A stretch of 64,000 nt of DNA from positions 1,160 through 65,159 of the forward strand of contig DAORGN010000002.1 of NCBI GenBank assembly GCA_035340095.1, in the 5' to 3' direction. Positions 9,962-39,065 of this stretch are shown in pieces; the first letter of the stretch is position 1; each line of letters opens with the position of its first letter. Below the pieces are notes generated by a model. It was given only the letters and a program-made list of their open reading frames with translations, did no database searches and had not been told where the DNA came from. This stretch comes from Pseudomonadota bacterium (GTDB taxonomy: Bacteria; Myxococcota_A; Polyangia; Palsa-1104; JAEUJZ01). The position numbers were made by a program, and so were the translations under genes.

Positions 9962-12463
9962 TTAGTTCCCTCGCGGCTTGATCATCTGGAAGTAGCGCTT
10001 GACGTAGAAGCGATAGCCCGGCGGGACGCGCTGTTTCGACATCACTTCTTCGGACACCGCCGTGTAGTCGCCGTAGACCTTGCGGTACGACGCTGTCGCG
10101 AAGCCTTTTTCTGCTGCGCCCGAGATCGTCTGCGAGCGGCTGGGTCCAGCGCCTTCTTTGCCATAGACCCGCGTCAGCTTGCGCTTGCTTTCAATCTGCG
10201 TCACATCACCGAGGAAGTTCGGATCGTGCTGTGTCCCTGGCCGGTCACCCTCTTTGCCTTGCCCCGGTCCGCCTTGGCCGTTTTGATTGCCCTGACCGCC
10301 TTGCCCTTGTCCGGGTCCGCCCGTCCCTGGTGACGCTTGCCCTGGCATCAGCACGATCGTCGTCTGTCCGTCTTGGCCACTTCCACCGAGCACCAACGTC
10401 TGGCCATCGCCGTCGCCGTTTGCCCGTTTTTTGAAATCCTGCATGTCTTTTTGGCCCTGGCCTTGACCCTGGCCTTGACCGCTTTTGCCAAGCCGCCGCA
10501 GCACCTGCTTGATCTGGTCGAGCGTGACGATGTTCTGCTTCTGCCCGGCTTTCTGTTTGGCCAGCTTGCGGACCTCGTCTTGGTAACGAGAAATCTCGCG
10601 CGACAGCTCTTCCATCGCCTGACGCTGATCCGGCGTCATTTTTTCCAGCGACTGCCGCATCCGTTCTGCCGCTTGCTGCAGATCGCGCTGGAGCTCCCGC
10701 ATCTGCTTTTGTGCTTCCTGTTTTTCGCGCAGCTGTTTTTCAACCTGCGAGAGCTGCTGCTGCTTTTGCGCCAGATCCTTTTGCGCGGCTTTGTCCTGCG
10801 GATTTTTCTTTAGCTGTTCTTGCAGACGGCGAATGTCCTCTTCGAGCTGCTTTTTTTGCTCTTTGAGCTTGCGGATTTCGTCCTCGAACTTTTGCTGCTC
10901 GCGCTCCATTTCCGACAGAAGCTTGCGTGCTTCATTTTGGTATTCGGGACGCTGATTGCCTTCCAGTCGCTGAAGCTGTCGTTCGCCCGGACCGTCGGCG
11001 TTTAGCTTTTGCTCGAGCTGTTCAAGCTGGCGCTGCGTTTTTTTCAGCCGTCGCTCGGTCTCTTCGTCCTGCGGATTTTCCGCCAGCTTCTTTTTGAGCC
11101 GTCGCTCTTCTTCGCGCAGCTCCTCACGGTTTTTTTCCAGCTCGTTTCGCTGCTGCTGCTTTTGCGCAAGCTCTTGCTTCTGCTTTTCCTGTTCTTGCCG
11201 AAGCTGCTCGGCGAGCTTCTGTTCCGCTTGTTTTAGCTCGTCGAGCTTGCGCCGCGCTTCGCTGTCGTTTGGGTTCTTTTCGATCTGCTGCTCAAGCTTG
11301 CGTTTTTCGTCGCGCAGCTCGTTTAGTTTTTGGCTGATTTCCTCGGACTTGTTTTTGGCCTGCCACTCGTCTTTTTGGCTCGCCCCGTCTTGCTTGTTCG
11401 TCGGTGTGTTTTCGTCGGGCCGGCTCGACATCGCTTTGGCGGCTCGCTCGAACGCTTCGGCCATCTGCTGTTTGTCCGCCGCTGCCGCTCTCGCCAGCGC
11501 TTTGTCCGCCAGCTCTTTTAGCTCCGCTTTCGCTTTGTCGAGATCGTCTTTGACCAGCGCTTGGCCAAGCTCCTGCGTCAGTTTCGATTCGCGCAGCTCA
11601 CTGCCGGCGCGGTGCAGTTGTTTTTCCATTTCAGCCAGCGTCGCTTCGGTGCCTTGGCGGACGCGCTGTTCGATTTCGCTGAGCCGTTCGAACGCTTGCT
11701 GCCGGGTCAGTTCACCCCGCTCGACTTGCTGGAGCAGATCGAGCATTTCGCGCAGAAGCTGTGCCGTTTCGTGATCGCCGCGCTGCTCGGCCTCGGCCAG
11801 CTTTTGCAAAAGCTCCTCACGCTCGGGCCCCAGAAGTTCAGGATCGATGTGCAACGTGTCCGCCATCGCTGCACTGGGTGTCGATTTGGCTTTTTCCGTC
11901 GGCAGTTTCGGACGCTCAAAACGCACAAACAGCAGCAGTCCATTGAGCGCGACAAGCACACCCAGCAGCGGCAGAAATGGCGGTTTTTTCCACGGTGCAG
12001 CGACGGAAGGCTGGACCTTTTGGGCGACCTGCGCGGCATCATGGACCGCCAGTTCCGCGAGCCCTTTGGCAAAGTCGGTCGGCGCAAGCGGTGTATGTCC
12101 CGCCGCAAACTGAATGGCCGACGACAGACGATCGTGCAGCGCGTGGCTTTTGTCGATGATCCCCGCCACCCACAGCGGATCGATTCGCCGCAGCGACAGA
12201 CCCACTGCCGTCAGCAGCACACCAACTGGACAGAGCAGCGCAAGTCGCACCAGCCAAAAACGGCTGAGCAGTTCCAGCCGAAACAAGAGCAGCGCGATCA
12301 GCATGACCGTCGCCGCTGCAATCAGTCCATGGACCACGCCGCGCGCCGCCGCTTGCAGCCGGAGCCGCCACCGCACCTTTGCCACCTTGGCCATGACTTG
12401 GGCCAGATCGTCTGCTGCAAAGCGAAATGCGGGCGACTCGTCGCGAGGCAACTGGTTTCCCAT
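9962..12463 (-). CDS. DUF4175-like membrane protein with long Gln/Glu/Lys/Gly-rich low-complexity coiled-coil region
   Basis: 833 aa. It has 2-3 predicted TM helices in the first 180 aa. A roughly 500 aa E/K/Q/R-rich coiled-coil region follows, then GQGQGQ/GQGNQNGQ Gly-Gln tracts. The conserved-looking tail is VYGDYTAVSEEV...YFQMIKP. This architecture matches my memory of TIGR02302/DUF4175. Confidence 0.55.
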   Translation of the reverse strand: MGNQLPRDESPAFRFAADDLAQVMAKVAKVRWRLRLQAAARGVVHGLIAAATVMLIALLLFRLELLSRFWLVRLALLCPVGVLLTAVGLSLRRIDPLWVAGIIDKSHALHDRLSSAIQFAAGHTPLAPTDFAKGLAELAVHDAAQVAQKVQPSVAAPWKKPPFLPLLGVLVALNGLLLFVRFERPKLPTEKAKSTPSAAMADTLHIDPELLGPEREELLQKLAEAEQRGDHETAQLLREMLDLLQQVERGELTRQQAFERLSEIEQRVRQGTEATLAEMEKQLHRAGSELRESKLTQELGQALVKDDLDKAKAELKELADKALARAAAADKQQMAEAFERAAKAMSSRPDENTPTNKQDGASQKDEWQAKNKSEEISQKLNELRDEKRKLEQQIEKNPNDSEARRKLDELKQAEQKLAEQLRQEQEKQKQELAQKQQQRNELEKNREELREEERRLKKKLAENPQDEETERRLKKTQRQLEQLEQKLNADGPGERQLQRLEGNQRPEYQNEARKLLSEMEREQQKFEDEIRKLKEQKKQLEEDIRRLQEQLKKNPQDKAAQKDLAQKQQQLSQVEKQLREKQEAQKQMRELQRDLQQAAERMRQSLEKMTPDQRQAMEELSREISRYQDEVRKLAKQKAGQKQNIVTLDQIKQVLRRLGKSGQGQGQGQGQKDMQDFKKRANGDGDGQTLVLGGSGQDGQTTIVLMPGQASPGTGGPGQGQGGQGNQNGQGGPGQGKEGDRPGTQHDPNFLGDVTQIESKRKLTRVYGKEGAGPSRSQTISGAAEKGFATASYRKVYGDYTAVSEEVMSKQRVPPGYRFYVKRYFQMIKPRGN

Positions 12464-12511
12464 GCGCAGGTTTCTTTCGGTAAAAAGTGTAAAGGTCGCC
12501 GGCCCGGTTGG

Positions 12512-23677: not shown

Positions 23678-24784
23678 GTGATAGATTTTCCCGACATGGT
23701 GCCGTTGGTGTGTCCCACCTGCCATACGGAGTCTCCGGAAGGGAGCCGCTTTTGCAGCATGTGCGGGCAGCCGCTTTCGGGTTCGAGCCTTGTGCGGGCT
23801 TCATCCCCTGATAGACGGGTGCAGACGTCTCCTGTGGGAACGGTGCTACCGAGCGCGGTGCTTTCGGCGTTGTCGGCGGCATCATCGGATGGCCAGCGGA
23901 CGGTGTCAGCCCGCGCAGCAAGTGGGTCCAGCGGGGCGATCGGGGATCTTGCGCAATCGGGGGAAACGGTCAAAACGATCCGCGACAGCAGCGATTCGGG
24001 GGCGCTGGGTCGCTCGGTCCCGCGTGTCGTGGCCGATGAGCCAACGCTGCCGGTGCGCTATCGTCCGACACGCAAGCGCAGTGCGGCACGGGCCCTGCGA
24101 TCGGTTTTGTTTGGTCTTTTGTGGCTGCTCTTGGCGGGGCTTGTCGCGATGTCTGTGGTGTGGCTTTTGCCCGAACGCCAGGCGGGGCCAGCGAAAGAGA
24201 CGCCGGCGACGGTGATTGCGTCTGTGAAAGAACCGAGCAAGCCACCGCGAATGACTGCCCGACCGGCGGTGCCGGCTGTACCGAAAGCAGCGACTCCAAG
24301 TCCGGTTGCCGCTCCTGGCTCCGAATCGCCGCGAGTAATCCCGGCTCCCGATTCCGTCCCTAAAGCCCCTGCGGTGCCATCGCCTGTACCAGCGGAAGCG
24401 GTCGAAACCGTCCATTCCCCATCGACTACGCCAACGTCGACCGACTTTTCTGCCGTACTCAGCGGCGCGGCGCGGGCGGCGTGGCAGCAGGATCTGGCCA
24501 ACATTGAGTTTGTGGCAACCACCTATGCCGCACAGGTCCGCGCTTGCTACGAGCGGTCGATCCGCGGCCTTGGTGGAGAGGCTCCCAGCGGGCGCGTTGT
24601 TGTGCTGTTTTCGCTGACCGATGACGGAAAAGCGCAACAGCCTGTGATCAGCGAAGACTCGCTCGGTTTGCCGGTGCTGGGACCGTGTCTGACCCAGCGA
24701 CTTTCAGAATGGCGCTTTCCTCGCCCCGTAGGTCCCATTCGCACCTTCCGGTTTCCGTTTGTGTTCGCGGGCAGTCGTCCCTAA
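23678..24784 (+). CDS. zinc-ribbon/TM protein with C-terminal TonB-C-like (AgmX/PglI-type) domain
   Basis: The N-terminal double zinc ribbon is CPTCH...CSMCG. One TM helix is followed by a Pro/Ala-rich periplasmic linker. The C-terminal ~90 aa (GRVVVLFSLTDDGK...LSEWRFPRP...FRFPFVF) follow the TonB_C pattern. This is the architecture of the Myxococcus AgmX/PglI C-terminal domain family. An alternative start ATG lies at 23696. Confidence 0.55.
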   Translation: MIDFPDMVPLVCPTCHTESPEGSRFCSMCGQPLSGSSLVRASSPDRRVQTSPVGTVLPSAVLSALSAASSDGQRTVSARAASGSSGAIGDLAQSGETVKTIRDSSDSGALGRSVPRVVADEPTLPVRYRPTRKRSAARALRSVLFGLLWLLLAGLVAMSVVWLLPERQAGPAKETPATVIASVKEPSKPPRMTARPAVPAVPKAATPSPVAAPGSESPRVIPAPDSVPKAPAVPSPVPAEAVETVHSPSTTPTSTDFSAVLSGAARAAWQQDLANIEFVATTYAAQVRACYERSIRGLGGEAPSGRVVVLFSLTDDGKAQQPVISEDSLGLPVLGPCLTQRLSEWRFPRPVGPIRTFRFPFVFAGSRP

Positions 24785-24849: not shown

Positions 24850-25968
24850 ATGGAGCAACACAGCGCTGAAAGCGGTCGCTGTGCTTGGGGGTCTTTGACC
24901 ATGAGCGGCAAGACGGGGGACGAAAAGCAGTCTTCGACACTGGTCGCGTCGGCGCTGGTGATCTCGCAGCGAGAGCAGGTGCAGGCCGAGCTACAGCGGC
25001 TGCTTGCGGAAGCTGACGTAAACGCCGTCTTGGTCAGCGACTCGGATTCCGCTCGGGCACAGGTGGCCAAGACGCAGTATCCGGTTGTGCTGATTGATGT
25101 GGACTCGATTTCTTTGTCGCAAGCCGTGGTGCTGCTTGGCGACGTGCGACGTTTGGCGCCGCGGGCGGAGCTGATTGTGCTGCTCGATGAGCCGAACTTC
25201 GACGCAGCGGTACAACTGGTGCGGCGCGGTGCTGTCGACGTAGTCTGTCGTTCATCGGACGATTTGCGGCTGCTGGGGCCGCGGGTGGCGTCGGCCATGC
25301 GCGATGCCAAACAGCGAGCGGATCGCAGTCAGATGCTGCGTGACTACAGCATCTTGACCGAAGACCTCCTGTATCGGCTGACCGATACTGCGCGACGGAT
25401 TGGCGAGCTCAAAGCACAGATCCATAGCAGTGCCAAAGGATCGGGTTCGCCCGCGTCGCCGATTGACGATTATGTCAGCGTTCTGATCGTGGAAGAAGAC
25501 GGCTGGCTGTCGCAGTCGCTTTCGCCGCTTGTGTCGAGCTCGTTTTCGCTGACGACGGTGGTAAGCGGTGGTGCGGCGCTCGATCGAGTGTCAGAACGGC
25601 CTTTCGACTTGGCACTTATCAAGGAAACGCTGCCGGATTTGCCGAGTCGGACGGTGATTCGTTCGCTGCAAGCGCAGTCGCCCGAAACGCTGGTGATGCT
25701 GTATCTGCCTCCGACGCGCGGCAAGCCAGGACGGATCGATCGGCTGGAAGCCGGTGGCGGCAAAGTGACGACGCTGGTGAGCGCGTTTACATCGCCCAAA
25801 CAGCTGGCCGAACGGCTCTCCGAGCTTCAGCAAGCGCAGGCGGCACGCCGACGCGAGCGCCGTTATTTGGCCGAGTTCCGCCAAGAAAACTACGAGCTTT
25901 TGCGGCGCTTGTCCGAGCTGCGCAAACGCTACCGCGAGGTCGACAGCACACAGGGACGAGGCAAGTAG
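24850..25968 (+). CDS. tandem pseudo-receiver (REC-like) domain protein with C-terminal coiled coil (FrzS-like architecture)
   Basis: There are two REC-fold segments (VVLIDVD..., VLIVEEDG...FDLALIK). The second has Lys where the phospho-accepting Asp is expected. The tail LSELQQAQAARRRERRYLAEFRQENYELLRRLSELRKRY is a coiled coil. Confidence 0.55.
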   Translation: MEQHSAESGRCAWGSLTMSGKTGDEKQSSTLVASALVISQREQVQAELQRLLAEADVNAVLVSDSDSARAQVAKTQYPVVLIDVDSISLSQAVVLLGDVRRLAPRAELIVLLDEPNFDAAVQLVRRGAVDVVCRSSDDLRLLGPRVASAMRDAKQRADRSQMLRDYSILTEDLLYRLTDTARRIGELKAQIHSSAKGSGSPASPIDDYVSVLIVEEDGWLSQSLSPLVSSSFSLTTVVSGGAALDRVSERPFDLALIKETLPDLPSRTVIRSLQAQSPETLVMLYLPPTRGKPGRIDRLEAGGGKVTTLVSAFTSPKQLAERLSELQQAQAARRRERRYLAEFRQENYELLRRLSELRKRYREVDSTQGRGK

Positions 25969-26009: not shown

Positions 26010-26103
26010 ACTGGGTTTTTCTATCGCTAATGCGCTCTGACCTCTCTTTGAAATCAGGGTCCAAAGGACGGTCGGCTTGGTCCCAAGCCGCGCGACGTGC
26101 CGT

Positions 26104-27864
26104 ATGAACGATGTTCCAACCACGGGCGTCACTCGGGTGTGCGTGACCTGCCAGCAGGTCTATAACTACAAAGACCAGCACGTCTGTCCCAAAGGCGGCA
26201 AAGCCGAGGTTCCGCCAGACCCTCTGGTGGGGGCCACGATCGGCGGGCGCTACCTTATCGAGTCGTTTTTGTCCTCGGGAGGGATGGGCGTAGTCTATCG
26301 AGCCAAGCATACGGTGCTCGATAAGCCGCTCGCGATCAAGCTGCTGCGGGAAGCGCAAGATCCGATGATGCAGCAGCGCTTTCTCCTCGAAGCGAAGAGC
26401 GCGTGCCACATCGGACACGAAAACATCGTCGACATCACCGATTTCGGTGTTCTTCACGATGGCCGTCCGTATCTGGTGATGGAATTTTTGCAGGGCCAGT
26501 CGCTTGAGGCGGTGATTGCCAAAGGCGCGCTGCCACCTTTGCGGACCTGCCGAATCGCCGAACAAATTGCCCGCGGACTGCACGCCGTCCACAGCAAGGG
26601 CATCGTCCACCGAGACCTCAAACCGGGGAACATCTTTATCCTCGAGCGTGGGCGCAAAGACTTCGTCAAAATCCTCGATTTTGGCATCGCCAAGGTGATG
26701 GCCGGTACGCGCGAGTCGTTGTCTGGTGGCAGCGCGAATTTGCCGAATTTGCGGGCGACAGCGACGGGGACGGTGTTGGGAACGCCGGAATATCTGTCGC
26801 CCGAGCAGGGTGCCGGGGAAGCGTTCGATGCCCGCGTCGATCAATACGCGCTCGGCTGCATCATGTACGAAATGCTGACGGGGCAGGTGCCTTTCCGCGG
26901 CAATGGACCGATGTCCACACTGATGAAGCATCTGACGGAAAAGCCGATTCCACCGCGGAAGCGCCGTCCCGAGCTGAACATTTCCGAAACGCTCGAAAAA
27001 ATCGTGCTCAAGGCGATGGCGCAGCAGAAGGAAAGCCGCTACGCCAACATGGACGAGCTGGCCAACGTCCTTCAGGAACTCATCGACAGTGGGACGCTGC
27101 CTGCTGATCCGGTGGTTCCTCGTCCGTCGGCGTCGCTGCAAACGGTGGCGGCGAGTCTGTCGGCTTCGTCGGCGCCGCCGGTTGAGCTGTCGCCGCTGAC
27201 ATCGGGCGATATGTTTGCACCGACGCTGCAAGCCGCGATTCCGACCAAAGACGAGATCGCCAAAGAGCGCGCGAAGACACAGCCCGAATCGACCACCGCG
27301 ACGATCGATCGCGGCAACAAACCACCGTCAGAGAACCGAGAAAAAGCGCCGCTTGCGACCGAGCAGGTTCGTCCCATCGTCCTTGCGAAACCGAATCGGC
27401 TGCCGCTGCTGTTGCTCGGGGTGGCGGCGGTGATGGTGCTGCTGCTGATTGGCGTGCTTGTCGTAAGGCTTGGGCCCGGCAGCAAACCGTCACAGCCTGT
27501 GCCGGCGGTGGACCTTGGCGAACGCAAAGTCGAAACGCCAGTGCCGGTTGAATCGCCGCCCACCGATGAGCACAAAGTCGAGCTGGAAAACAAGACGGCG
27601 GGCAAAGTGACTGTTCTGTGTGGTCCGAAAAAAAGCTGCATTCTCGACGCGGGAAAGACCTGCGAGCTTGCGCTTTCGCCGGACGCGCGATGTGAAGCGA
27701 GCGCCACTGGGTTTGTCAGCCGCAGCCTGGATGTCGGAAGCGCCGTCAAGCACGCGGGCAAAGGACAAACCGCGCATCTGGCGGTTCACCTTGACGCCGA
27801 AAAGCCGGTGGGCAAAGTCAAAAAGTCCAAGGGCTCCAAGGCGGGCAAGGGCAAAAAGCGCTAA
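26104..27864 (+). CDS. Ser/Thr protein kinase with N-terminal zinc-ribbon, one TM, Cys-rich periplasmic C-domain
   Basis: GRYLIESFLSSGGMGVVYRAKH, HRDLKPGNIF, DFGIAK and GTPEYLSPE are Hanks motifs. The N-terminus has CVTCQ...CPKG. A TM helix sits at ~aa 445. The C-terminal domain has four Cys and a Lys-rich tail. The start is set at the ATG at 26104. The ORF track uses a TTG at 26077. Confidence 0.85.
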   Translation: MNDVPTTGVTRVCVTCQQVYNYKDQHVCPKGGKAEVPPDPLVGATIGGRYLIESFLSSGGMGVVYRAKHTVLDKPLAIKLLREAQDPMMQQRFLLEAKSACHIGHENIVDITDFGVLHDGRPYLVMEFLQGQSLEAVIAKGALPPLRTCRIAEQIARGLHAVHSKGIVHRDLKPGNIFILERGRKDFVKILDFGIAKVMAGTRESLSGGSANLPNLRATATGTVLGTPEYLSPEQGAGEAFDARVDQYALGCIMYEMLTGQVPFRGNGPMSTLMKHLTEKPIPPRKRRPELNISETLEKIVLKAMAQQKESRYANMDELANVLQELIDSGTLPADPVVPRPSASLQTVAASLSASSAPPVELSPLTSGDMFAPTLQAAIPTKDEIAKERAKTQPESTTATIDRGNKPPSENREKAPLATEQVRPIVLAKPNRLPLLLLGVAAVMVLLLIGVLVVRLGPGSKPSQPVPAVDLGERKVETPVPVESPPTDEHKVELENKTAGKVTVLCGPKKSCILDAGKTCELALSPDARCEASATGFVSRSLDVGSAVKHAGKGQTAHLAVHLDAEKPVGKVKKSKGSKAGKGKKR

Positions 27865-27938: not shown

Positions 27939-29633
27939 ATGGAGACTGCTGCCAAGACCGAACCTACGCACCCGGTGCCTGCGTCTTTCGAGACGTCGCC
28001 TGACCGATACCGCCACTGGCGGCTCGAGTTCGACGGGGATGTTGCCCGTTTGCTCATGTCCGTTCGCGAAGACGAGCCGCTTGTTCCGGGGTACGTCCTC
28101 AAGCTCAACTCGTATGACCTGGGCGTCGATATCGAGCTGTGTGACGCGGTGCAGCGGCTGCGGTTTGGCCATCCGGAAGTTCGCACCGTCGTGGTGAGCT
28201 CGGGCCGCGATCGCATCTTCTGCGCCGGTGCCAACATCCACATGCTGGCGCAGTCGTCCCACGGCTTTAAGGTCAATTTCTGCAAGTTCACAAACGAGAC
28301 GCGCCTGTCGATCGAGGACGCCTGTGCAAGCAGCGGCCAAAAGTATCTGGCCGCAGTCTCAGGCCCCTGCGCTGGTGGCGGTTACGAACTGGCGATGGCG
28401 TGCGACGAAATCGTTCTCATCGACGATGGATCGAGCACGGTGGCGCTTCCTGAAGTGCCTTTGCTTGGCGTGTTGCCGGGGACAGGTGGTCTTACGCGGC
28501 TCGTCGACAAGCGCAAAGTCCGGCGAGATCGCGCCGACATTTTTTCGACGCTGGCCGAGGGCATTCGTGGCAAGCGCGCCGTCGAGTGGCGTCTCGTCGA
28601 TCAGACGGTGCCGCGCAGCCGTTTTGCCCAAGCCGTGAGCGATCGGGCCCACAAACTGGCACAAGAGTCGAAAAACCAAGTCGTCAGCGCACCCGGACCG
28701 CAGACGGGGATCTCGCTTGAGCCGCTGCATCCGACGGTCGATGGTGACTCGATTTCGTATCGTTTTGTCTCGCTGCGGGTGGACAAGCCGCACCGCACAG
28801 CCCACCTGACGATGCGCGGACCCGGCGCGGGCCAGGACGTGCGCACCGCCGAGGAACTGCATGCGCTGGCAAGTCGCGGCGAGCTGTGGGCGCTGCGGGC
28901 ATATCGCGAACTCGACGATGCAATCTGTCGGCTGCGTTTCCACTATCCGACGGTGGGCCTGGTGATGCTGTCGACCCGTGGGGATCAGGCAGAAGTGCTC
29001 AAGGCGGACGCGGCGGTGGCAGCGCTTCGCGATTACTGGCTGGGCCGGGAAGTGCTGCTGCACATGGCGCGGGTGCTGCGTCGGCTCGACATGACCGCGA
29101 AGTCGTTTTTCGCCGTGGTCGATCCCGAAAGCTGCTTTGCCGGTTCGCTGCTGGAGATCCTGCTGGCGTCGGATCGCAGCTACGTTTTGGAAGATCCTGG
29201 GGTGAAGTTTTCGACGGGAACTCTCAACGGTGGGGCGCTTTTGTGCGGAAACGGGCAGACCCGTCTTTCGCTGCGCTGTTATGACCAGCCGGGGCGCGCC
29301 AAAGAAATCCTCGCACGGGGCGAAAAAGGTCCGATCTCGGCAAGCGAGGCCGATGCGCTTGGGCTTTGTACGGTGCTGGCCGACGACCTTGATTTCGAAG
29401 ACACGCTGCGACTTGCCGTCGAGGAGCGCGTGAGCTTGTCACCGGACGCGCTGACGGGCATGGAACAGAACCTGCGCTTCCCTGGCCCCGATCTCTCGGA
29501 AGGCAAGGTGTTTGGTCGTCTGTCGGCCTGGCAGAACTGGATCTTCATTCGCGAAAACGCCACAGGGCCGCTCGGCGCGCTGACCTGCTATGGCCGACCG
29601 GAACGGCCAAGCTTCGACTGGCGCCGCACCTAG
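27939..29633 (+). CDS. boxC: benzoyl-CoA-dihydrodiol lyase-like protein (BoxC-like, crotonase superfamily)
   Basis: ~565 aa. The N-terminal crotonase fold carries IFCAGANI...GPCAGGGYELAMACDEI, with a second crotonase-like half. The size and architecture fit BoxC, and it sits next to a BoxB-like gene. The start is the ATG at 27939. Confidence 0.55.
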   Translation: METAAKTEPTHPVPASFETSPDRYRHWRLEFDGDVARLLMSVREDEPLVPGYVLKLNSYDLGVDIELCDAVQRLRFGHPEVRTVVVSSGRDRIFCAGANIHMLAQSSHGFKVNFCKFTNETRLSIEDACASSGQKYLAAVSGPCAGGGYELAMACDEIVLIDDGSSTVALPEVPLLGVLPGTGGLTRLVDKRKVRRDRADIFSTLAEGIRGKRAVEWRLVDQTVPRSRFAQAVSDRAHKLAQESKNQVVSAPGPQTGISLEPLHPTVDGDSISYRFVSLRVDKPHRTAHLTMRGPGAGQDVRTAEELHALASRGELWALRAYRELDDAICRLRFHYPTVGLVMLSTRGDQAEVLKADAAVAALRDYWLGREVLLHMARVLRRLDMTAKSFFAVVDPESCFAGSLLEILLASDRSYVLEDPGVKFSTGTLNGGALLCGNGQTRLSLRCYDQPGRAKEILARGEKGPISASEADALGLCTVLADDLDFEDTLRLAVEERVSLSPDALTGMEQNLRFPGPDLSEGKVFGRLSAWQNWIFIRENATGPLGALTCYGRPERPSFDWRRT

Positions 29634-29656
29634 AGCGTCACTTCCTTCCCCCGCAG

Positions 29657-29682
29657 GTGTACCCGATCGGTACACTTTTCTC
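29657..29682 (+). terminator. hairpin GTGTACC-cgatc-GGTACAC followed by TTTTCT (intrinsic-terminator-like or operator)
   Basis: A 7-bp perfect inverted repeat lies 24 nt after the boxC stop and is followed by a T-run. Confidence 0.35.
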
Positions 29683-29787
29683 GTCGCAGAATTCAATTTC
29701 GAAGTCTAGTTCTCACCCGCGAAGCGTGATAAGACCGCTCCATAGAGTCCGAGTGCGGAATCTCAACCTGCAGCTTCGCTACGAAGC

Positions 29788-31266
29788 GTGACGAAACGAA
29801 AGGTCAGAACCCCGATGACCGTAGAGCTTTTCGAAAAGATCCCGAACAACGTCAATCTGTCGGCGGACAAGCGGCTCCAGCGGGCGCTTGAGCAGTGGCT
29901 TCCGAACTACATCTCATGGTGGAAAGAGATGGGTCCGGACCAGTTCCAAGAGAGCGATGTCTACCTGCGGACCGCTATCAGCGTCGAAACCGACGGTTGG
30001 GCGCACTTTGACTACGTGCGGATGCCGGAATACCGCTGGGGAATTTTCCTCGAGCCGGCGATTGCCGGTCGCACGATCGGTTTTGGCGATCACTACGGCC
30101 AGCCGGCGTGGCAGGAAGTTCCGGGCGAATACCGCAACACGTTGCGTCGGATCATCGTCACGCAAGGCGACACCGAGCCCGCGTCGGTTGAGCAGCAGCG
30201 CATGCTGGGCCACACCGCGCCGTCTCTGTACGATCTGCGCAACCTGTTCCAGGTCAACGTCGAGGAAGGCCGTCACTTGTGGGCGATGGTCTATCTGCTT
30301 CACTCGTACTTTGGCAAAGACGGTCGCGAGGAAGCCGAAGCCATGCTCGAGCGCCGCTCGGGCGATCGTGACAAGCCGCGCATCCTCGGGGCGTTCAATG
30401 AACCGGTGAAGTCGTGGCTCGACTTTTACATGTTCACGATGTTTACGGACCGCGACGGCAAGTTTCAGCTCTGCGCGCTGAGTGAGTCGGGATTTGATCC
30501 GCTTTCGCGCACCTGTAAGTTCATGCTGACCGAAGAAGCGCACCACATGTTCGTCGGTGAAACCGGCGTCGATCGCGTGGTGCAGCGCGCCTGTGAGCTG
30601 ATGCTCGAGACGCGCTCCGATTCGCCGGACGTGATCACCAAGGCGGGTGGTATTCCGCTCGACATGGTGCAGCGCCACCTGAACCTGTGGTTTTCGCTGT
30701 CCGAAGACCTGTTCGGTGGCGAAATTTCGTCGAACGCCGCTGAGTTCTTCGCCGCCGGTCTCAAGGGCCGATACAAAGAAGACAGCTACAGCGAGCACAC
30801 CGGGCTAAACCAGTTCTACGAAATGCCAGTCCCCGCCGAGGGCGGCAAGATCGTGACGACCCAAGTGCCGCTGCGCAATGCGATGAACGAAGTGCTGCGT
30901 GATGGCTATGTCACCGACTGCCAGCGCGCCGTCGACAAGTGGAATCGCACGATCGACAAGCAGCTTGGTGAGCGTGGGGCTCAGTTCAAGCTCGCCCTGC
31001 CGAGCCGTCGCTTCCATCGTCACATCGGCATCTACGGCATGAACTCGGGCAACTACTTCGACCCGACCGGCAACCCGATTTCGCAAGGCGAGTTCATGGC
31101 CAATCGGAACAAGTGGCTGCCGACCGACGCCGACCGCGAGTATCTCAAGCAGATCATGCGGCCTGTGACCGAGCCGGGGAAAATCGCAGCGTGGATTGCG
31201 CCGCCGGCACGCGGCATAAACGGTCAGACCGTCGAGTTCGAGTACGTCCGTCACCTGCCGGCGTAA
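29788..31266 (+). CDS. boxB: benzoyl-CoA 2,3-epoxidase subunit B-like di-iron oxygenase (BoxB-like)
   Basis: ~480 aa soluble protein. It has two EExxH di-iron ligand blocks (VEEGRHLWAM and TEEAHHMF). The size and order after boxC fit BoxB. An alternative start ATG lies at 29815. Confidence 0.55.
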   Translation: MTKRKVRTPMTVELFEKIPNNVNLSADKRLQRALEQWLPNYISWWKEMGPDQFQESDVYLRTAISVETDGWAHFDYVRMPEYRWGIFLEPAIAGRTIGFGDHYGQPAWQEVPGEYRNTLRRIIVTQGDTEPASVEQQRMLGHTAPSLYDLRNLFQVNVEEGRHLWAMVYLLHSYFGKDGREEAEAMLERRSGDRDKPRILGAFNEPVKSWLDFYMFTMFTDRDGKFQLCALSESGFDPLSRTCKFMLTEEAHHMFVGETGVDRVVQRACELMLETRSDSPDVITKAGGIPLDMVQRHLNLWFSLSEDLFGGEISSNAAEFFAAGLKGRYKEDSYSEHTGLNQFYEMPVPAEGGKIVTTQVPLRNAMNEVLRDGYVTDCQRAVDKWNRTIDKQLGERGAQFKLALPSRRFHRHIGIYGMNSGNYFDPTGNPISQGEFMANRNKWLPTDADREYLKQIMRPVTEPGKIAAWIAPPARGINGQTVEFEYVRHLPA

Positions 31267-31290: not shown

Positions 31291-32547
31291 TTAGCCGGCG
31301 GGCTTGTTGTCGGACGCCAGTTCTTGGGCTGCCGAGTGAGCCCGCTGCGAACCAAGCGGCGCAATCAGCAGCCCACCGAGCGCTGCCACCGACGCCATCG
31401 CTCCCCACTGCCACAGCAAATTTCTTTCCAGCAACAGCCCCGCCAAAAACGGTGCCACGATCTGCGCCACCGACTGGAGCGACTGCGTAAGTCCAATCAC
31501 GGTCCCTTGCTCCGATCGATCGGCGCTCTGGGAGATCAGGCTGCTCAGCGTGGGTCGCAGCACCGCGTTGCCAAAGGCTGTCACCGTCGCTGCGACCCCA
31601 AGCCATTGCAGTGAGTTGCTCGCCGCGATGATGCCAAATCCCATCACCAAAGACAGGTAGCCGGCATTGACCAGTGATCGCTCGCCGAAGCGCTTGACCA
31701 GTCGACCGATCAGACCGCCCTGAAGCAAGAGCCCGAGGAAGCCGCTATAGGCAAACAGATAGCCGATTTCGCGCGGACCAAACGGGTGGCCGTGCCAGAC
31801 GTAGCGCCGCTCGGCGTAGAGCGAAAAACCCGACGTGAAGACCGAAAAACACATCGAGTAAAACAGAAACTGAAACAGCATCGCTGCCAGAACCGGACGG
31901 TCAAAGTACGCCCGATACGACCGCCACTCGAGAATCGACAGCCGCTTGCCACCGGGAAGCGCCGCGTCGGGTTGCTGCGCGCGGATCGCCACGCCGCCGG
32001 GCAAAAGCAGCAGCGTGCAGACAATCGACACAAGCGACATCCCCGCCGCCAGGAAAATAGGCGCCGCCAGCCCATGTTTTACAAGCACGCCGGTGACGCC
32101 CGGTCCGATGAAAAACCCGAGTCCGAACGCCACGCCGATCACCGCAAAGGACTTGGCGCGATCTTTGGCTTCGGAATGATCGGCAATGTAGGCCTGGGCA
32201 ATCGACAGGTTTCCCGCCGTCGTGCCTTGAATCACCCGCGCCAGATAAATCATCCACAGCGACGTCGCTGACGCCATCGCCAGGTACCCGAAGAGCGCGC
32301 CGATTTGGCTAAACAGCAGCACCGATTTGCGCCCAATCCGATCAGACCAACTGCCGAGCAGCGGACTTGCGACGAGCTGACAGATCGCGAACACCGAAAC
32401 GAGCAGCGTTGCTTGCAGCGGCGTCGCGCCCAGGTGTTCGGCATAGATCGCTTGCAGCGGCAGCACCAGCGTCAGGCCGAACACATCGACAAGCACGATG
32501 AGAAAGATGGGGATGAGTGCGCGATTCAATGGAACTCCGAGGCCCAA
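31291..32547 (-). CDS. MFS transporter
   Basis: 12-TM pattern with the MFS motif GSWSDRIGRK between TM2 and TM3. Confidence 0.8.
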   Translation of the reverse strand: MGLGVPLNRALIPIFLIVLVDVFGLTLVLPLQAIYAEHLGATPLQATLLVSVFAICQLVASPLLGSWSDRIGRKSVLLFSQIGALFGYLAMASATSLWMIYLARVIQGTTAGNLSIAQAYIADHSEAKDRAKSFAVIGVAFGLGFFIGPGVTGVLVKHGLAAPIFLAAGMSLVSIVCTLLLLPGGVAIRAQQPDAALPGGKRLSILEWRSYRAYFDRPVLAAMLFQFLFYSMCFSVFTSGFSLYAERRYVWHGHPFGPREIGYLFAYSGFLGLLLQGGLIGRLVKRFGERSLVNAGYLSLVMGFGIIAASNSLQWLGVAATVTAFGNAVLRPTLSSLISQSADRSEQGTVIGLTQSLQSVAQIVAPFLAGLLLERNLLWQWGAMASVAALGGLLIAPLGSQRAHSAAQELASDNKPAG

Positions 32548-33605: not shown

Positions 33606-33768
33606 GCTGGCTCCTAACGTGAAACGACCGACTTGCACCAAGGTACATGACATATATGGTCATTCTTCGTCAACGATTCCCTGGACTTGCGTGCCGGGTG
33701 GGGCTTGGTTTTCGTCGGATTGCAATTTTTCGGCTTGACAGGTGGGCGCCTATGCTAGTTTGCCCGAC

Positions 33769-35094
33769 ATGATGGCCGAGAGTTTTCACAAAAAGGCGCT
33801 GGCTCGTGAGCTCCGCCCGGCGCTATCGAAGGATGAGGCGCTCACCGAGGCCAATCGGTGCTTGTTTTGCTACGACGCGCCGTGCATGCGGGCGTGTCCG
33901 ACGCACATCGATGTGCCGCTGTTTATCAGACAGATTTCGACGGCAAATCCGACGGGTGCGGCGCGCACGATTTTGGCCGCCAACATCCTTGGAGCAAGCT
34001 GCGCGCGGGTTTGTCCGACGGAAGTGCTGTGCGAAGGCGCCTGCGTGCTTTCCGACCAGCACAAACCGATTCAGATTGGACCGCTACAGCGCTACGCGAC
34101 CGATCATGCGATGCAGACGGGAATGCCGATTCTCAAACCAGGGAAAAAGCAGCCTGGATCGGTTGGAATCATCGGGGCTGGACCGTCAGGACTGGCCTGT
34201 GCGGCAGAGCTGCTCAAGCTTGGCTACGAATCGGTGATTTATGAAGCCCACGACCGGCCCGGCGGGCTCAATTCGGTCGGGGTTGCGCAGTATAAAATGA
34301 CGCCGGATGTGGCCCTGGCCGAAGTCGACTGGCTTGTGCGATCCGGGGTGCAGATCCGCTGCGGTGTCACCGTCGGAAAAGACGTAAGTTTTGCCGAATT
34401 GGAAAGCCGCCACGACGCGATGTTTATCGGCGTCGGCATGGGCGGAATTCCGGGCATCGGCGTGGCTGGGGAAGACATTTCCGGCGTGTGGGATGGCCTG
34501 GATTTCATCGCGGCGCTCAAACAGGGCGACAGCGAGGTGTTCGATGCGCTACGTGGCGCGCGTGTCGCGGTCATTGGCGGCGGCAACACCGCGATTGACG
34601 TCGTGACGCAGGCGGCCCGGGCCGGCGCGTCGAAAGTGTGGCTTCTGTATCGTCGTGGTCGCGAGCAGATGTCGGCCTATGCGCACGAGATCGAGCTGGC
34701 CAAGCAGCATGGCATCGAGCTTCTGCTGCATGCCGTGCCGCATCGCGTGCTTGGTCCGTCGCGGGGCCTGTCACCGCGCAGCAGCCGCGTCGCTGGACTG
34801 GAGTTTGGTCGCAAGCTTCCCGACGGTGGTGAAAGACTGGAAACCCTGCCTGCCGACCTGGTGATTCGGGCGACCGGACAAAAAGGGGCCAAGCTGACCG
34901 CGGAACTGCCGGTGCGTACAGACGGTGGAAAAGTGCTGGCTGACGAGTCGGGGCGGACTTCGAATCCGCGCTACTTCGCGGGTGGTGACTGCGTGTCGGG
35001 CGGCCAAGAAGTGGTCAACGCCGTGGCTGAAGGCCAGCGGGCAGCGCGGACGATTGTCGCTGAAGTGCTGTCTTTGCGTGGAGGGGCGCGGTAG
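33769..35094 (+). CDS. preT: NAD-dependent dihydropyrimidine dehydrogenase subunit PreT (glutamate-synthase small-subunit-like)
   Basis: The 4Fe-4S ligand blocks are CLFCYDAPCMRACP and CARVCPTEVLCEGAC. The dinucleotide-binding block is IGAGPSGLACA. Confidence 0.75.
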   Translation: MMAESFHKKALARELRPALSKDEALTEANRCLFCYDAPCMRACPTHIDVPLFIRQISTANPTGAARTILAANILGASCARVCPTEVLCEGACVLSDQHKPIQIGPLQRYATDHAMQTGMPILKPGKKQPGSVGIIGAGPSGLACAAELLKLGYESVIYEAHDRPGGLNSVGVAQYKMTPDVALAEVDWLVRSGVQIRCGVTVGKDVSFAELESRHDAMFIGVGMGGIPGIGVAGEDISGVWDGLDFIAALKQGDSEVFDALRGARVAVIGGGNTAIDVVTQAARAGASKVWLLYRRGREQMSAYAHEIELAKQHGIELLLHAVPHRVLGPSRGLSPRSSRVAGLEFGRKLPDGGERLETLPADLVIRATGQKGAKLTAELPVRTDGGKVLADESGRTSNPRYFAGGDCVSGGQEVVNAVAEGQRAARTIVAEVLSLRGGAR

Positions 35095-35111
35095 CGCCGG
35101 AGGAGTTCGCG

Positions 35112-36398
35112 ATGGCCGATCTTTCCGTCGATTTTTGTGGAATCAAGTCGCCCAATCCGTTCTGGTTGGCTTCGGCGCCACCGACGAACACAGGCGATCA
35201 AATCATGCGTGCCTTTGACGCTGGCTGGGGCGGAGCGGTGTGGAAGACGCTCGGGCAGCCAATCGTCAACGTGTCGTCGCGCTATTCATCGGTCGACTAT
35301 GCCGGACGACGCATGATGGGGCTTAACAACATTGAGCTCATCACCGATCGACCGCTCGACGTGAACTTCCGCGAAGTCAGCGAGGTCAAAAAGCGCTATC
35401 CCAAAAACGCGCTGATCGTGTCGCTGATGGTCGAGTCGAAGCGCGAAGCCTGGCACGAAATCGTCCGTCGTGCCGAAGACGCTGGTGCCGATGGCCTGGA
35501 GCTAAACTTCGGCTGTCCGCACGGGATGAGCGAGCGCGGCATGGGCAGCGCCGTCGGACAGGTGCCCGACTACACCTGCCAAATCGTCAAGTGGGTCAAA
35601 GAAGTCGCCAAGACGCCGGTGATTGTGAAGCTGACGCCGAACATCACCGACATCACGTTCCCGGCGCGCGCGGCAGAGCAGGGTGGGGCCGATGCGGTGT
35701 CGCTCATCAACACGATCAACTCGGTGACGGGAATTGATCTGGAAACGATGACGCCGCGTCCGGCGGTCCATGGTGCATCGGCGCACGGCGGCTACTGCGG
35801 TCCCGCGGTCAAACCGATAGCGCTGTCGATGGTCGCGTCCGTTGGCCAGACGGTGAAGATCCCGATATCTGGCATCGGTGGCATTGCCAACTGGCACGAC
35901 GCGGCAGAGTTCATTCTGATGGGCGCGACGACGGTGCAGGTCTGTACTGCGGTCATGCACCACGGCTTCCGCATCGTGCTCGACATGATTGACGGTCTGT
36001 CGTCGTATCTGGACCGCAAAGGGCTGGCCAGCGTAAGTGACTTGGTGGGCCGCAGCTTGCCGACCTATCAGCGCTGGGAACAGCTGGACCTAAACTACCG
36101 CGTCATCGCCGACATCAAGCAGGACAAGTGCATCGGCTGTGGCGTCTGTTATGCCGCTTGCTACGACGGAGCGCACCAGGCCATCGCTGCCAAACCGGAT
36201 GGGCGGGGTCGTTCGGCGGTGCAAGTCCTAGAACACAAGTGCGTCGGGTGCAACCTCTGTAGCTTGGTCTGCCCCGTCGAGGATTGCATCACGATGAAGC
36301 GGGTCGACACGGGTTCTGACACGCGCGTGCCGTGGACGGAATACAGCAAGAACCCGTCTTTGTATCCGCACATCCGATCCAATCGTCACGACCAGTAA
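35112..36398 (+). CDS. preA: NAD-dependent dihydropyrimidine dehydrogenase subunit PreA (DHODH-like + 2x[4Fe-4S])
   Basis: DHOD/DHPD TIM-barrel blocks (LELNFGCPHG, PVIVKLTPN) are present. A C-terminal ferredoxin domain carries CIGCGVCYAAC and CVGCNLCSLVCPV. Confidence 0.8.
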   Translation: MADLSVDFCGIKSPNPFWLASAPPTNTGDQIMRAFDAGWGGAVWKTLGQPIVNVSSRYSSVDYAGRRMMGLNNIELITDRPLDVNFREVSEVKKRYPKNALIVSLMVESKREAWHEIVRRAEDAGADGLELNFGCPHGMSERGMGSAVGQVPDYTCQIVKWVKEVAKTPVIVKLTPNITDITFPARAAEQGGADAVSLINTINSVTGIDLETMTPRPAVHGASAHGGYCGPAVKPIALSMVASVGQTVKIPISGIGGIANWHDAAEFILMGATTVQVCTAVMHHGFRIVLDMIDGLSSYLDRKGLASVSDLVGRSLPTYQRWEQLDLNYRVIADIKQDKCIGCGVCYAACYDGAHQAIAAKPDGRGRSAVQVLEHKCVGCNLCSLVCPVEDCITMKRVDTGSDTRVPWTEYSKNPSLYPHIRSNRHDQ

Positions 36399-38726: not shown

Positions 38727-39065
38727 TCACGAAATGCCGAGCCTGATGCTGCGGGCAAGCAGCGCCGACAAGACGGTTTCCAGCGTCGAGACAAGCTCGG
38801 CATCGGCGGTCTTCCACAGCTTGCCGTCCGCATCCGGATCGAAGTGCCACGCCTTGCGCTGCGCCGCCATCCAGATTTGCCGAGCCGCCCGGTGCCGGTT
38901 GATGACAATTTTTTGCCCGTTGCCGAGCGTCAGATTCAGCACGTCGCCGGACATCTCGACGTCGACTTCATCGGGATCAAAGGTGGAAACCGCTCGCTCG
39001 ATGCGACGGATCATCGCGTCGGCGAGCTTGTCAAACTCTGCGTCCTGTTTTTCGCGCGGATTCAT
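38727..39065 (-). CDS. cyaY: iron donor protein CyaY (frataxin homologue)
   Basis: 112 aa. The blocks FDKLADAMIRRIE, GDVLNLTLGNGQKIVINRH and QIWMAAQRKAWHFD line up with CyaY. Confidence 0.8.
   Translation of the reverse strand: MNPREKQDAEFDKLADAMIRRIERAVSTFDPDEVDVEMSGDVLNLTLGNGQKIVINRHRAARQIWMAAQRKAWHFDPDADGKLWKTADAELVSTLETVLSALLARSIRLGIS

Follow-up and report, generated by a model that had tools for sequence, protein, structure and literature searches.

A boxC–boxB gene pair without neighboring pathway partners in an uncultured Polyangia-like myxobacterium: a probable module of a dispersed benzoyl-CoA pathway

Organization of the boxC–boxB Locus

The window analyzed here is a 64 kb stretch of DNA, in which two adjacent open reading frames (ORFs) on the same strand match the BoxC (TIGR03222) and BoxB (TIGR03225) profiles (Table 1). 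This agrees with an earlier note on the sequence, which had described such a pair flanked by genes for a Ser/Thr kinase and an MFS transporter; both flanking genes were also found as described. The boxC ORF opens either at ATG 27891 (580 aa) or at its second Met, 27939, the latter being the likely start because the alignment to Burkholderia xenovorans BoxC (2W3P) begins at ORF residue 23. The boxB ORF opens at GTG 29788; the downstream ATG 29815 is preceded by GAAAGG, likely the boxB ribosome-binding site, and is itself the likely start, both on account of this motif and because the gene called on six public contigs likewise encodes 483 aa. An identical 483-aa BoxB is encoded on those six contigs, with the same gene arrangement in six independent assemblies; metagenome-assembled genomes with this identical BoxB include GCA_035333665.1 and GCA_035339155.1.

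Table 1. Positions of the boxC–boxB pair and of other features discussed in the text
Feature	Position in window	Strand	Characteristics
ORF with AgmX/PglI C-terminal domain	23678–24784		52.9 bits (cut-off 40)
Ser/Thr kinase	26077–27864	+	upstream flank of boxC
boxC	27939–29633	+	TIGR03222 profile match, full length
boxC–boxB spacer, 181 nt	29634–29814	+	sequence reading
boxB, predicted di-iron benzoyl-CoA 2,3-epoxidase oxygenase component, 483 aa	29815–31266	+	TIGR03225 match
MFS transporter	31291–32547	−	downstream flank of boxB
PreT-like Fe-S flavoprotein	33742–35094		2×[4Fe-4S] + FAD/NAD(P)H

The spacer between the two genes, which in related loci ranges from −7 to a few hundred nt, contains a 7-bp hairpin (GTGTACC-CGATC-GGTACAC) followed by TTTT. 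A regulatory RNA or terminator in this spacer was rejected, given a non-significant RNA fold z-score (−1.04), no match of the spacer in Rfam, and promoter and terminator scans at chance level.

The myxobacterial-type context proposed earlier is supported by the AgmX/PglI domain, by a match to a myxosortase-type M36 peptidase (1282 bits, under its 1500-bit cut-off), and by the closest BoxB relatives, which occur in Polyangia metagenome-assembled genomes. The GC content and GC3 of boxCB are the same as those of the flanks; there is thus no sign of recent acquisition as an island, and a horizontally acquired island was rejected. The flanking genes (kinase, MFS, PreTA) are syntenic with no related locus and offer no functional support.

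Identity and Conservation of BoxB and BoxC

BoxB scores 747.5 bits against TIGR03225 (cut-off 499.1), with PaaA the second-best family at only 20.6 bits, and aligns over its full length with Azoarcus evansii BoxB (3PER; 634.6 bits, phmmer), bearing out its description as a BoxB-like di-iron oxygenase. In the 3PER alignment, with residues numbered as in A. evansii and listed from the benzoyl-CoA-bound structure (PMC5489048), all six di-iron ligands (E120, E150, H153, D211, E240, and H243) are identical, as are all seven residues that orient the benzoyl group (Q116, T119, S123, F193, F203, F206, and T210).

BoxC likewise proved to be a double crotonase, with two tandem crotonase-fold domains end to end in both the profile match and the alignment to 2W3P (555.7 bits, E = 1e-165, phmmer; chain residues 3–555). 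Its TIGR03222 score of 705.4–705.6 bits, over profile positions 2–547 of 548, falls 7 bits short of the cut-off (712.3), and since the next-best family reaches only 85 bits, BoxC is not a member of some other crotonase family. The earlier concern that the pair might prove to be of a different crotonase/di-iron family on profile scores thus touches BoxC narrowly and only formally, and BoxB, far above its cut-off, not at all. BoxC proteins encoded next to boxB in related loci score 700–944 bits on TIGR03222, the most divergent of those tested being that of the window and that of its nearest relative (L001, 699.9 bits). Divergence from 2W3P lies mostly in the linker and the C-terminal non-catalytic domain, with the N-terminal catalytic domain highly conserved. 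The GGGYELA and LPEVPLLGVLPGTGG motifs are kept in this alignment, as is LPEV; the two active-site Glu residues presumably lie in GGGYELA and LPEV. The active site of BoxC has been described as two Glu residues of the N-terminal domain, at crotonase positions (PMC4498308).

Strain variants show that both genes are under purifying selection, with 7–10 synonymous and no non-synonymous changes in boxB and 11–13 synonymous versus 3–4 non-synonymous codon changes in boxC. These counts bear on whether the pair is a decaying, no longer functional relic of a formerly complete box cluster from which boxA, boxR, and the ligase gene have disappeared. In favor of this are the low BoxC score, among the lowest tested, and the lack of boxR, a gene that 12 of the 13 well-flanked Myxococcota-like loci possess. 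However, neither ORF is disrupted or truncated, all catalytic residues are retained, and the arrangement recurs in the six assemblies; we regard decay as very unlikely.

Partner Genes in the Window

Every BoxR, benzoate-CoA ligase, BoxD, flavodoxin, BoxA, and FprA-like protein from 80 related loci was used as a tblastn query against the whole 64 kb (E ≤ 0.01). Within the window, no homologue of BoxA (TIGR03224-type), benzoate-CoA ligase, BoxD, or flavodoxin was detected, nor did any of the 41 BoxR query sequences find a match. The absence of BoxA, the ligase, and a BzdR/BoxR-type regulator, reported earlier for the flanks, therefore extends to the entire window. The 64 kb also encodes no adenylate-forming enzyme of any kind, and consequently no NRPS-type adenylation domains.

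The sole match to any partner query was to the PreT-like gene, in its FAD domain; the product of this gene has cofactors resembling those of BoxA and a weak likeness to the FprA-like gene found after boxB in two related loci (L049 and L072). As a stand-in BoxB reductase it was rejected as the default reading, because a strong PreA (675.9 bits versus a cut-off of 335) accompanies it, an arrangement that looks like dihydropyrimidine dehydrogenase, and because it is not near boxCB in any related locus. A ferredoxin-type Cys motif, sought in six frames of the 64 kb, occurs only in PreA. Replacement of BoxR by the upstream Ser/Thr kinase or by a response-regulator-like gene is not supported, these genes being unconserved in relatives; the window holds two kinases, and kinases are abundant generally.

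The earlier note had also raised the idea that the pair acts on another aryl-CoA or has a biosynthetic, secondary-metabolite role in place of benzoate catabolism. Myxobacteria do produce natural products derived from benzoyl-CoA, and such a role would fit the lack of a ligase, a regulator, and any lower-pathway gene nearby, as well as the divergent, slightly sub-threshold BoxC. Nevertheless, the evidence speaks against this proposal, which we regard as very unlikely: all 13 BoxB residues compared are as in A. evansii, including every residue that holds the benzoyl ring; in relatives, boxCB is accompanied by BoxR, a regulator of the BzdR family whose inducer is benzoyl-CoA; and the annotated genes of the 64 kb, besides including no adenylate-forming enzyme, are housekeeping or signaling genes. 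In addition, A. evansii BoxB is reported to be highly specific and not to accept phenylacetyl-CoA (PMC4498308).

Related Loci and BoxB Clades

The boxC>boxB order is shared by 68 of the 80 related loci, so the adjacency of the two genes is not due to chance. In the same set, boxA was present in only three of the 80 and was seen only in betaproteobacterial loci. Among the 23 Myxococcota-like loci, neither boxA nor a ligase gene occurs within 10 kb of boxCB, boxD is found in three, and boxR in 17; dispersal is thus the norm in these relatives. A lack of partner genes nearby is the usual arrangement in Myxococcota-like loci, making the locus largely ordinary and less unusual than the earlier note had thought, and its only atypical feature among them is the lack of a divergent boxR. 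That note's suggestion of a pathway split across the genome gains indirect support: the relatives suggest it, and the window's own genome was read over 64 kb.

In a neighbor-joining tree, the BoxB of the window groups with Polyangia inside a large, mostly non-proteobacterial clade—comprising Myxococcota, Planctomycetota, and many Acidobacteriota—without a linked reductase gene. In a separate BoxB clade, a MioC-like flavodoxin gene adjoins boxR-boxCB, again without BoxA, and in L049 and L072, which belong to this clade, a gene for an FprA-like NADPH flavoprotein directly follows boxB. These observations raise the possibility that the lineage of the window lacks BoxA altogether and that BoxB receives its electrons from a partner not homologous to BoxA, for example a general ferredoxin/flavodoxin with an NADPH reductase, with chemistry and substrate unchanged. 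No boxA was found within 10 kb of boxCB in any of the 57 Myxococcota-like, Acidobacteriota, or Planctomycetota loci, and the flavodoxin/FprA-like clade makes partner replacement plausible. Furthermore, BoxA does not co-purify, minor amounts of it suffice, and its interaction is transient (PMC4498308). However, a gene missing from 10-kb flanks may still be present in the genome, dispersal of pathways is frequent in myxobacteria, no flavodoxin or ferredoxin gene was found near boxCB in the window, and a benzoate-CoA ligase of the myxobacterium Chondromyces has been reported in the context of an aerobic Box cluster (PMC10803450). A BoxA-free lineage is therefore conceivable but, on balance, doubtful.

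A search for BoxA homologues in a collection of 5.8 billion proteins was uninformative on Myxococcota: every one of the 8000 scored candidates passed, and the 120 matches listed shared at least 76% identity with the betaproteobacterial query, with named organisms of Burkholderiales type. Literature searches returned nothing for boxB, boxC, and flavodoxin together and, for boxA-lacking Acidobacteria, only unrelated usages of "boxA."

Proposed Function

Overall, judging from sequence comparison, the pair is probably a functional boxC–boxB module, part of a dispersed Box pathway for aerobic, CoA-dependent benzoate degradation that belongs to an uncultured Polyangia-like myxobacterium. BoxB would use O2 and two electrons to convert benzoyl-CoA to 2,3-epoxybenzoyl-CoA, which BoxC would open hydrolytically to 3,4-dehydroadipyl-CoA semialdehyde and formate. 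BoxC co-purifies with BoxB and is required against product inhibition (PMC4498308); we propose that the two genes are kept together because the enzymes would act as a complex in which BoxC relieves product inhibition of BoxB. Genes for the reductase that delivers electrons, for BoxD aldehyde dehydrogenase, for a route to benzoyl-CoA, and for a regulator, if there is one, would lie elsewhere in the genome, with electrons reaching BoxB through a distantly encoded BoxA or a general ferredoxin/flavodoxin system.

The question of what reduces BoxB in the absence of a clustered boxA concerns the whole Myxococcota/Planctomycetota/Acidobacteriota BoxB group rather than the window alone. The Box pathway of this mostly non-proteobacterial clade might run without a dedicated BoxA, on a general or other redox partner, a view put forward here only tentatively. 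If so, the clade would parallel the second one, where the place of BoxA is taken by a MioC-like flavodoxin that is in some loci joined by an FprA-like reductase, and BoxA would be a lineage-specific add-on, not one of the subunits that define benzoyl-CoA epoxidase. The locus extends confident BoxB and BoxC orthologues to an uncultured Polyangia lineage, and pipelines demanding a complete boxABC-boxR-bcl cluster miss the potential for aerobic benzoyl-CoA degradation in Myxococcota, Planctomycetota, and Acidobacteriota.

Comparison with Known Systems

The BoxB of the window resembles that of A. evansii (PDB 3PER/3PF7/3PM5/3Q1G) in size and in the position of its gene directly downstream of boxC; it differs in lacking an adjoining boxA, in falling into a different neighbor-joining clade (with Polyangia, Acidobacteriota, and Planctomycetota), and in small indels near residues 395–425 (numbering of the 492-aa ORF). 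Canonical betaproteobacterial clusters, which comprise boxR, boxC, boxB, boxA, bclA, and boxD (L063 and L080; Azoarcus/Paraburkholderia, PMC10803450), have the same boxC–boxB order and orientation, whereas in the window boxA, boxR, bclA, and boxD are absent from the 64 kb and the flanks are housekeeping and signaling genes. The Myxococcota-type boxR<>boxC-boxB loci of Sorangium cellulosum So0157-2 (L034) and Sorangium sp. So ce726 (L027) carry a divergently transcribed BoxR gene, unlike the window and its nearest relative; their boxCB is likewise isolated, without a nearby boxA or ligase gene, and their genomes are large, with the pathway genes scattered. Closed Sorangium genomes include NC_021658.1 and NZ_CP150349.1. 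Sedimenticola selenatireducens CUZ, a gammaproteobacterium likened to the window by its published description, also has a cluster described as boxB and boxC only, and its BoxB and BoxC peptides were highest on benzoate plus O2 (PMC4453571).

Family Assignment of BoxC and BoxB

The BoxB product was found to match TIGR03225 with 747.5 bits (cut-off 499.1) and PaaA with only 20.6 bits, and to align along its full length with the BoxB of A. evansii (PDB 3PER and related entries; 634.6 bits). Its start is most likely the ATG at 29815, 11 nt past GAAAGG, giving a 483-aa product that is the same as the gene-caller output on six public contigs. A. evansii BoxB binds iron through E120, E150, H153, D211, E240, and H243, and orients the benzoyl group through Q116, T119, S123, F193, F203/F206, and T210 (PMC5489048); 13 of these 13 residues are identical in the window BoxB. 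This identical pocket argues against the alternative, raised in the earlier note, that the pair acts on another aryl-CoA or has a biosynthetic, secondary-metabolite role.

BoxC scored 705.4–705.6 bits against TIGR03222 (profile positions 2–547/548; runner-up family, 85 bits). Thus, the adjacent, same-strand BoxC-like and BoxB-like genes proposed from the sequence were recovered, with BoxB above its curated cut-off and BoxC 7 bits below its own (712.3), a real but small shortfall. The boxB-adjoining BoxC of the nearest relative, the Polyangia locus L001, scores 699.9, those of other Myxococcota 722–801, and those of Acidobacteriaceae and Alphaproteobacteria 885–944; therefore, the window and L001 lie at the divergent extreme of a single, continuous family. 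The alignment to B. xenovorans BoxC (2W3P; 555.7 bits, chain residues 3–555 covered) opens at ORF residue 23, so the previously proposed start at the second Met fits. In its N-terminal catalytic crotonase domain, the window BoxC is almost identical to 2W3P, and the GGGYELA and LPEVPLLGVLPGTGG motifs, which we take to be the sites of the two active-site Glu residues, are kept. Pfam returned only generic ECH and PaaA/PaaC domains for the pair. The 181-nt boxC-boxB spacer, the length of which varies widely among relatives, contains no significant structure or known RNA.

Features of the pair and its surroundings
Feature	Coordinates	Strand	Remarks
849-aa ORF	9962–12511	−	no family match
Protein with two weak receiver-like domains	24850–25968	+	upstream of kinase
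Ser/Thr kinase	26077–27864	+	upstream of boxC
boxC	27939–29633	+	TIGR03222
boxB	29788–31266 (likely start 29815)	+	TIGR03225
Tet-like MFS transporter	31291–32547	−	downstream of boxB
PreT-like + PreA	33742–36398 (PreT-like 33742–35094)	+	PreT-like: Fer4_20 + FAD/NAD(P) domains; PreA: NF006183, 675.9 bits
Frataxin/CyaY homologue	38727–39065	−	PF01491, on 112-aa product in strain contigs L081/L082
M36 metallopeptidase, 1312 aa	54735–58673	+	NF038112, 1282 bits (cut-off 1500)

Partner Genes and Genomic Neighborhood

Query proteins were taken from 80 related loci (the best of at least 599), with their groups confirmed by NCBIfam: BoxR/BzdR type (NF006015, 282 bits), benzoate-CoA ligase (TIGR02262, 635 bits), BoxD (NF008868, 634 bits), MioC-like flavodoxin (NF005989, 136 bits), and BoxA (TIGR03224, 713 bits); the FprA-like flavoproteins matched no specific family above cut-off, the best being glutamate-synthase small-subunit-type FAD/NAD(P) domains. 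All members of the six groups were searched by tblastn against the whole window (E ≤ 0.01). BoxR, ligase, BoxD, and BoxA gave zero matches, so the absence of boxA, ligase, and regulator described earlier for the flanks extends to the full 64 kb. The window therefore holds no adenylate-forming enzyme, and no other recognizably biosynthetic gene was found among its annotated genes, a second point against a biosynthetic role. The remaining genes serve housekeeping and signaling (glgA, MlaF-like ABC ATPase, HMG-CoA synthase, pheST, rmlA, hemB, two-component systems, kinases, and the M36 peptidase).

The sole substantive match was that of FprA-like proteins to the FAD domain of the PreT-like gene; one flavodoxin gave a negligible match (31 residues, E = 0.009). 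The PreT-like Fe-S flavoprotein, encoded with PreA 2.5 kb downstream of boxB, has the cofactor set of BoxA. It was not adopted as the default BoxA stand-in but treated as an NAD-dependent dihydropyrimidine dehydrogenase: its neighbor scores strongly as PreA, and other boxCB loci do not have it close by. Neither a dihydropyrimidinase nor a beta-ureidopropionase gene adjoins the two genes, and across six frames of the window the ferredoxin-type motif CxxCxxCxxxC occurs in PreA alone.

The kinase and MFS transporter flank the pair as previously described, without synteny between the flanking genes and related loci; GC and GC3 of boxCB are in line with those of the flanks. The receiver-like gene, kinase, and boxC lie on one strand, separated by 108 and 74 nt, an order also present in strain contigs L081 and L082 (L083 begins inside the kinase) and absent from other species' loci. 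The kinase carries a C-terminal region of ~270 aa without a family. The frataxin/CyaY gene is found 7.5 kb downstream of boxB, whose product is the di-iron enzyme; this nearness is probably coincidental. Farther away, the 849-aa ORF encodes a membrane-anchored, extremely E/K/Q-rich coiled coil with a Gly/Gln-rich tail and coincides with a strong AT-skew dip (−0.456 at 10001–12000). The M36 metallopeptidase best matches, below cut-off, the myxosortase-dependent subfamily, with a further match to the rhombosortase-dependent type (940 bits), and supports a Myxococcota origin.

Conservation among Strains and Relatives

The exact window BoxB is encoded on six contigs that were assembled independently (JGI 3300045290, three from ENA, and the MAGs GCA_035333665.1 and GCA_035339155.1), and the gene neighbors on the longer contigs (L081–L083) are the same as in the window. 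Across the four contigs compared, boxB strain variants carry 1–10 synonymous codon changes (7–10 on three contigs) but not a single non-synonymous one; for boxC, the two divergent strains show 11–13 synonymous and 3–4 non-synonymous changes. This synonymous excess is the pattern of purifying selection and argues against the pair being a decaying remnant.

One genome per species was scanned for relatives. Among the best 80 of at least 599, the closest BoxB, from a Polyangia MAG, is 78% identical. All-against-all ORF clustering identified boxC>boxB as the invariant core (68 of 80 loci), with other genes variable. Of the 80 loci, just three, all betaproteobacterial (L060, L063, and L080), have a neighboring classical boxA. 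Burkholderiales sequences saturated a protein search for BoxA homologues. The 23 Myxococcota-like loci include none with boxA or ligase, three with boxD, and 17 with boxR (12 of 13 where flanks are large); absence of boxA and ligase is therefore the rule in this lineage. Two closed Sorangium genomes likewise carry an isolated boxR<>boxCB. The adjoining BoxR gene of relatives also speaks against another aryl-CoA substrate, leaving that alternative disfavored. The sole atypical feature of the window pair is its lack of a divergent boxR, also missing in L001.

In 12 of the 80 loci (L047, L049, L053, L056, L059, L060, L071, L072, L073, L075, L077, and L079; for example, L075:1353–1898 (−) and L072:11626–12888 (+)), a divergent MioC-like flavodoxin gene adjoins boxR-boxC-boxB, and in L049 and L072 the gene immediately after boxB encodes an FprA/adrenodoxin-reductase-like NADPH flavoprotein. 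Of the 12 loci, L060 alone has classical boxA; it also carries boxB in a second copy. The flavodoxin arrangement may supply benzoyl-CoA epoxidase with an alternative reductase system; no paper tying boxB/boxC to flavodoxin was found in the open-access literature. In Pyrinomonadaceae and related Acidobacteriota (L009, L013, L015–L017, L021, L023, L024, L028, and L032), boxC-boxB precedes a gene judged TetR-family-like from its sequence, two more crotonase-family genes, and an SDR-like gene, without boxA, ligase, or boxD, which looks like a compact lower-pathway operon with TetR in place of BoxR.

The earlier note had also suggested a phylogeny against bona fide BoxB. A neighbor-joining tree of 82 BoxB proteins (that of A. 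evansii and 81 drawn from the window and the loci), built without support values and indicative only, showed three groupings in step with cluster organization: A. evansii together with L063 and L080, both boxA-linked; a clade of their own for the BoxBs of Alpha-/Betaproteobacteria and Acidobacteriaceae whose boxR-boxCB adjoins a flavodoxin gene; and a large Myxococcota/Planctomycetota/Acidobacteriota group without a linked redox gene. The window BoxB falls in the third, with the Polyangia loci L001 and L002, apart from A. evansii.

Proposed Function and Comparison with Known Systems

Judged from sequence, the locus probably encodes a functional part of a dispersed pathway, namely the module that epoxidizes benzoyl-CoA and opens its ring. 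BoxB would epoxidize benzoyl-CoA with O2 and two electrons, and BoxC, an enzyme with two active-site Glu residues, would then open the ring (PMC4498308). BoxC co-purifies with BoxB and is required to lift product inhibition, whereas BoxA does not co-purify and suffices in small amounts (PMC4498308). The tight tie of BoxC to BoxB would explain boxC-boxB as the conserved unit, and the looser need for BoxA a reductase gene free to sit elsewhere or be replaced. That BoxB in the Myxococcota/Planctomycetota/Acidobacteriota clade works without BoxA is a tentative and rather unlikely proposal; it is the sole point of wider interest, and a question for the clade rather than the locus. The window BoxB and BoxC are new members of well-characterized families, in an arrangement usual for the phylum. 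In Sedimenticola, the products of a box cluster were most abundant on benzoate plus O2 and, as in the window, that cluster consists of boxB and boxC only (PMC4453571).
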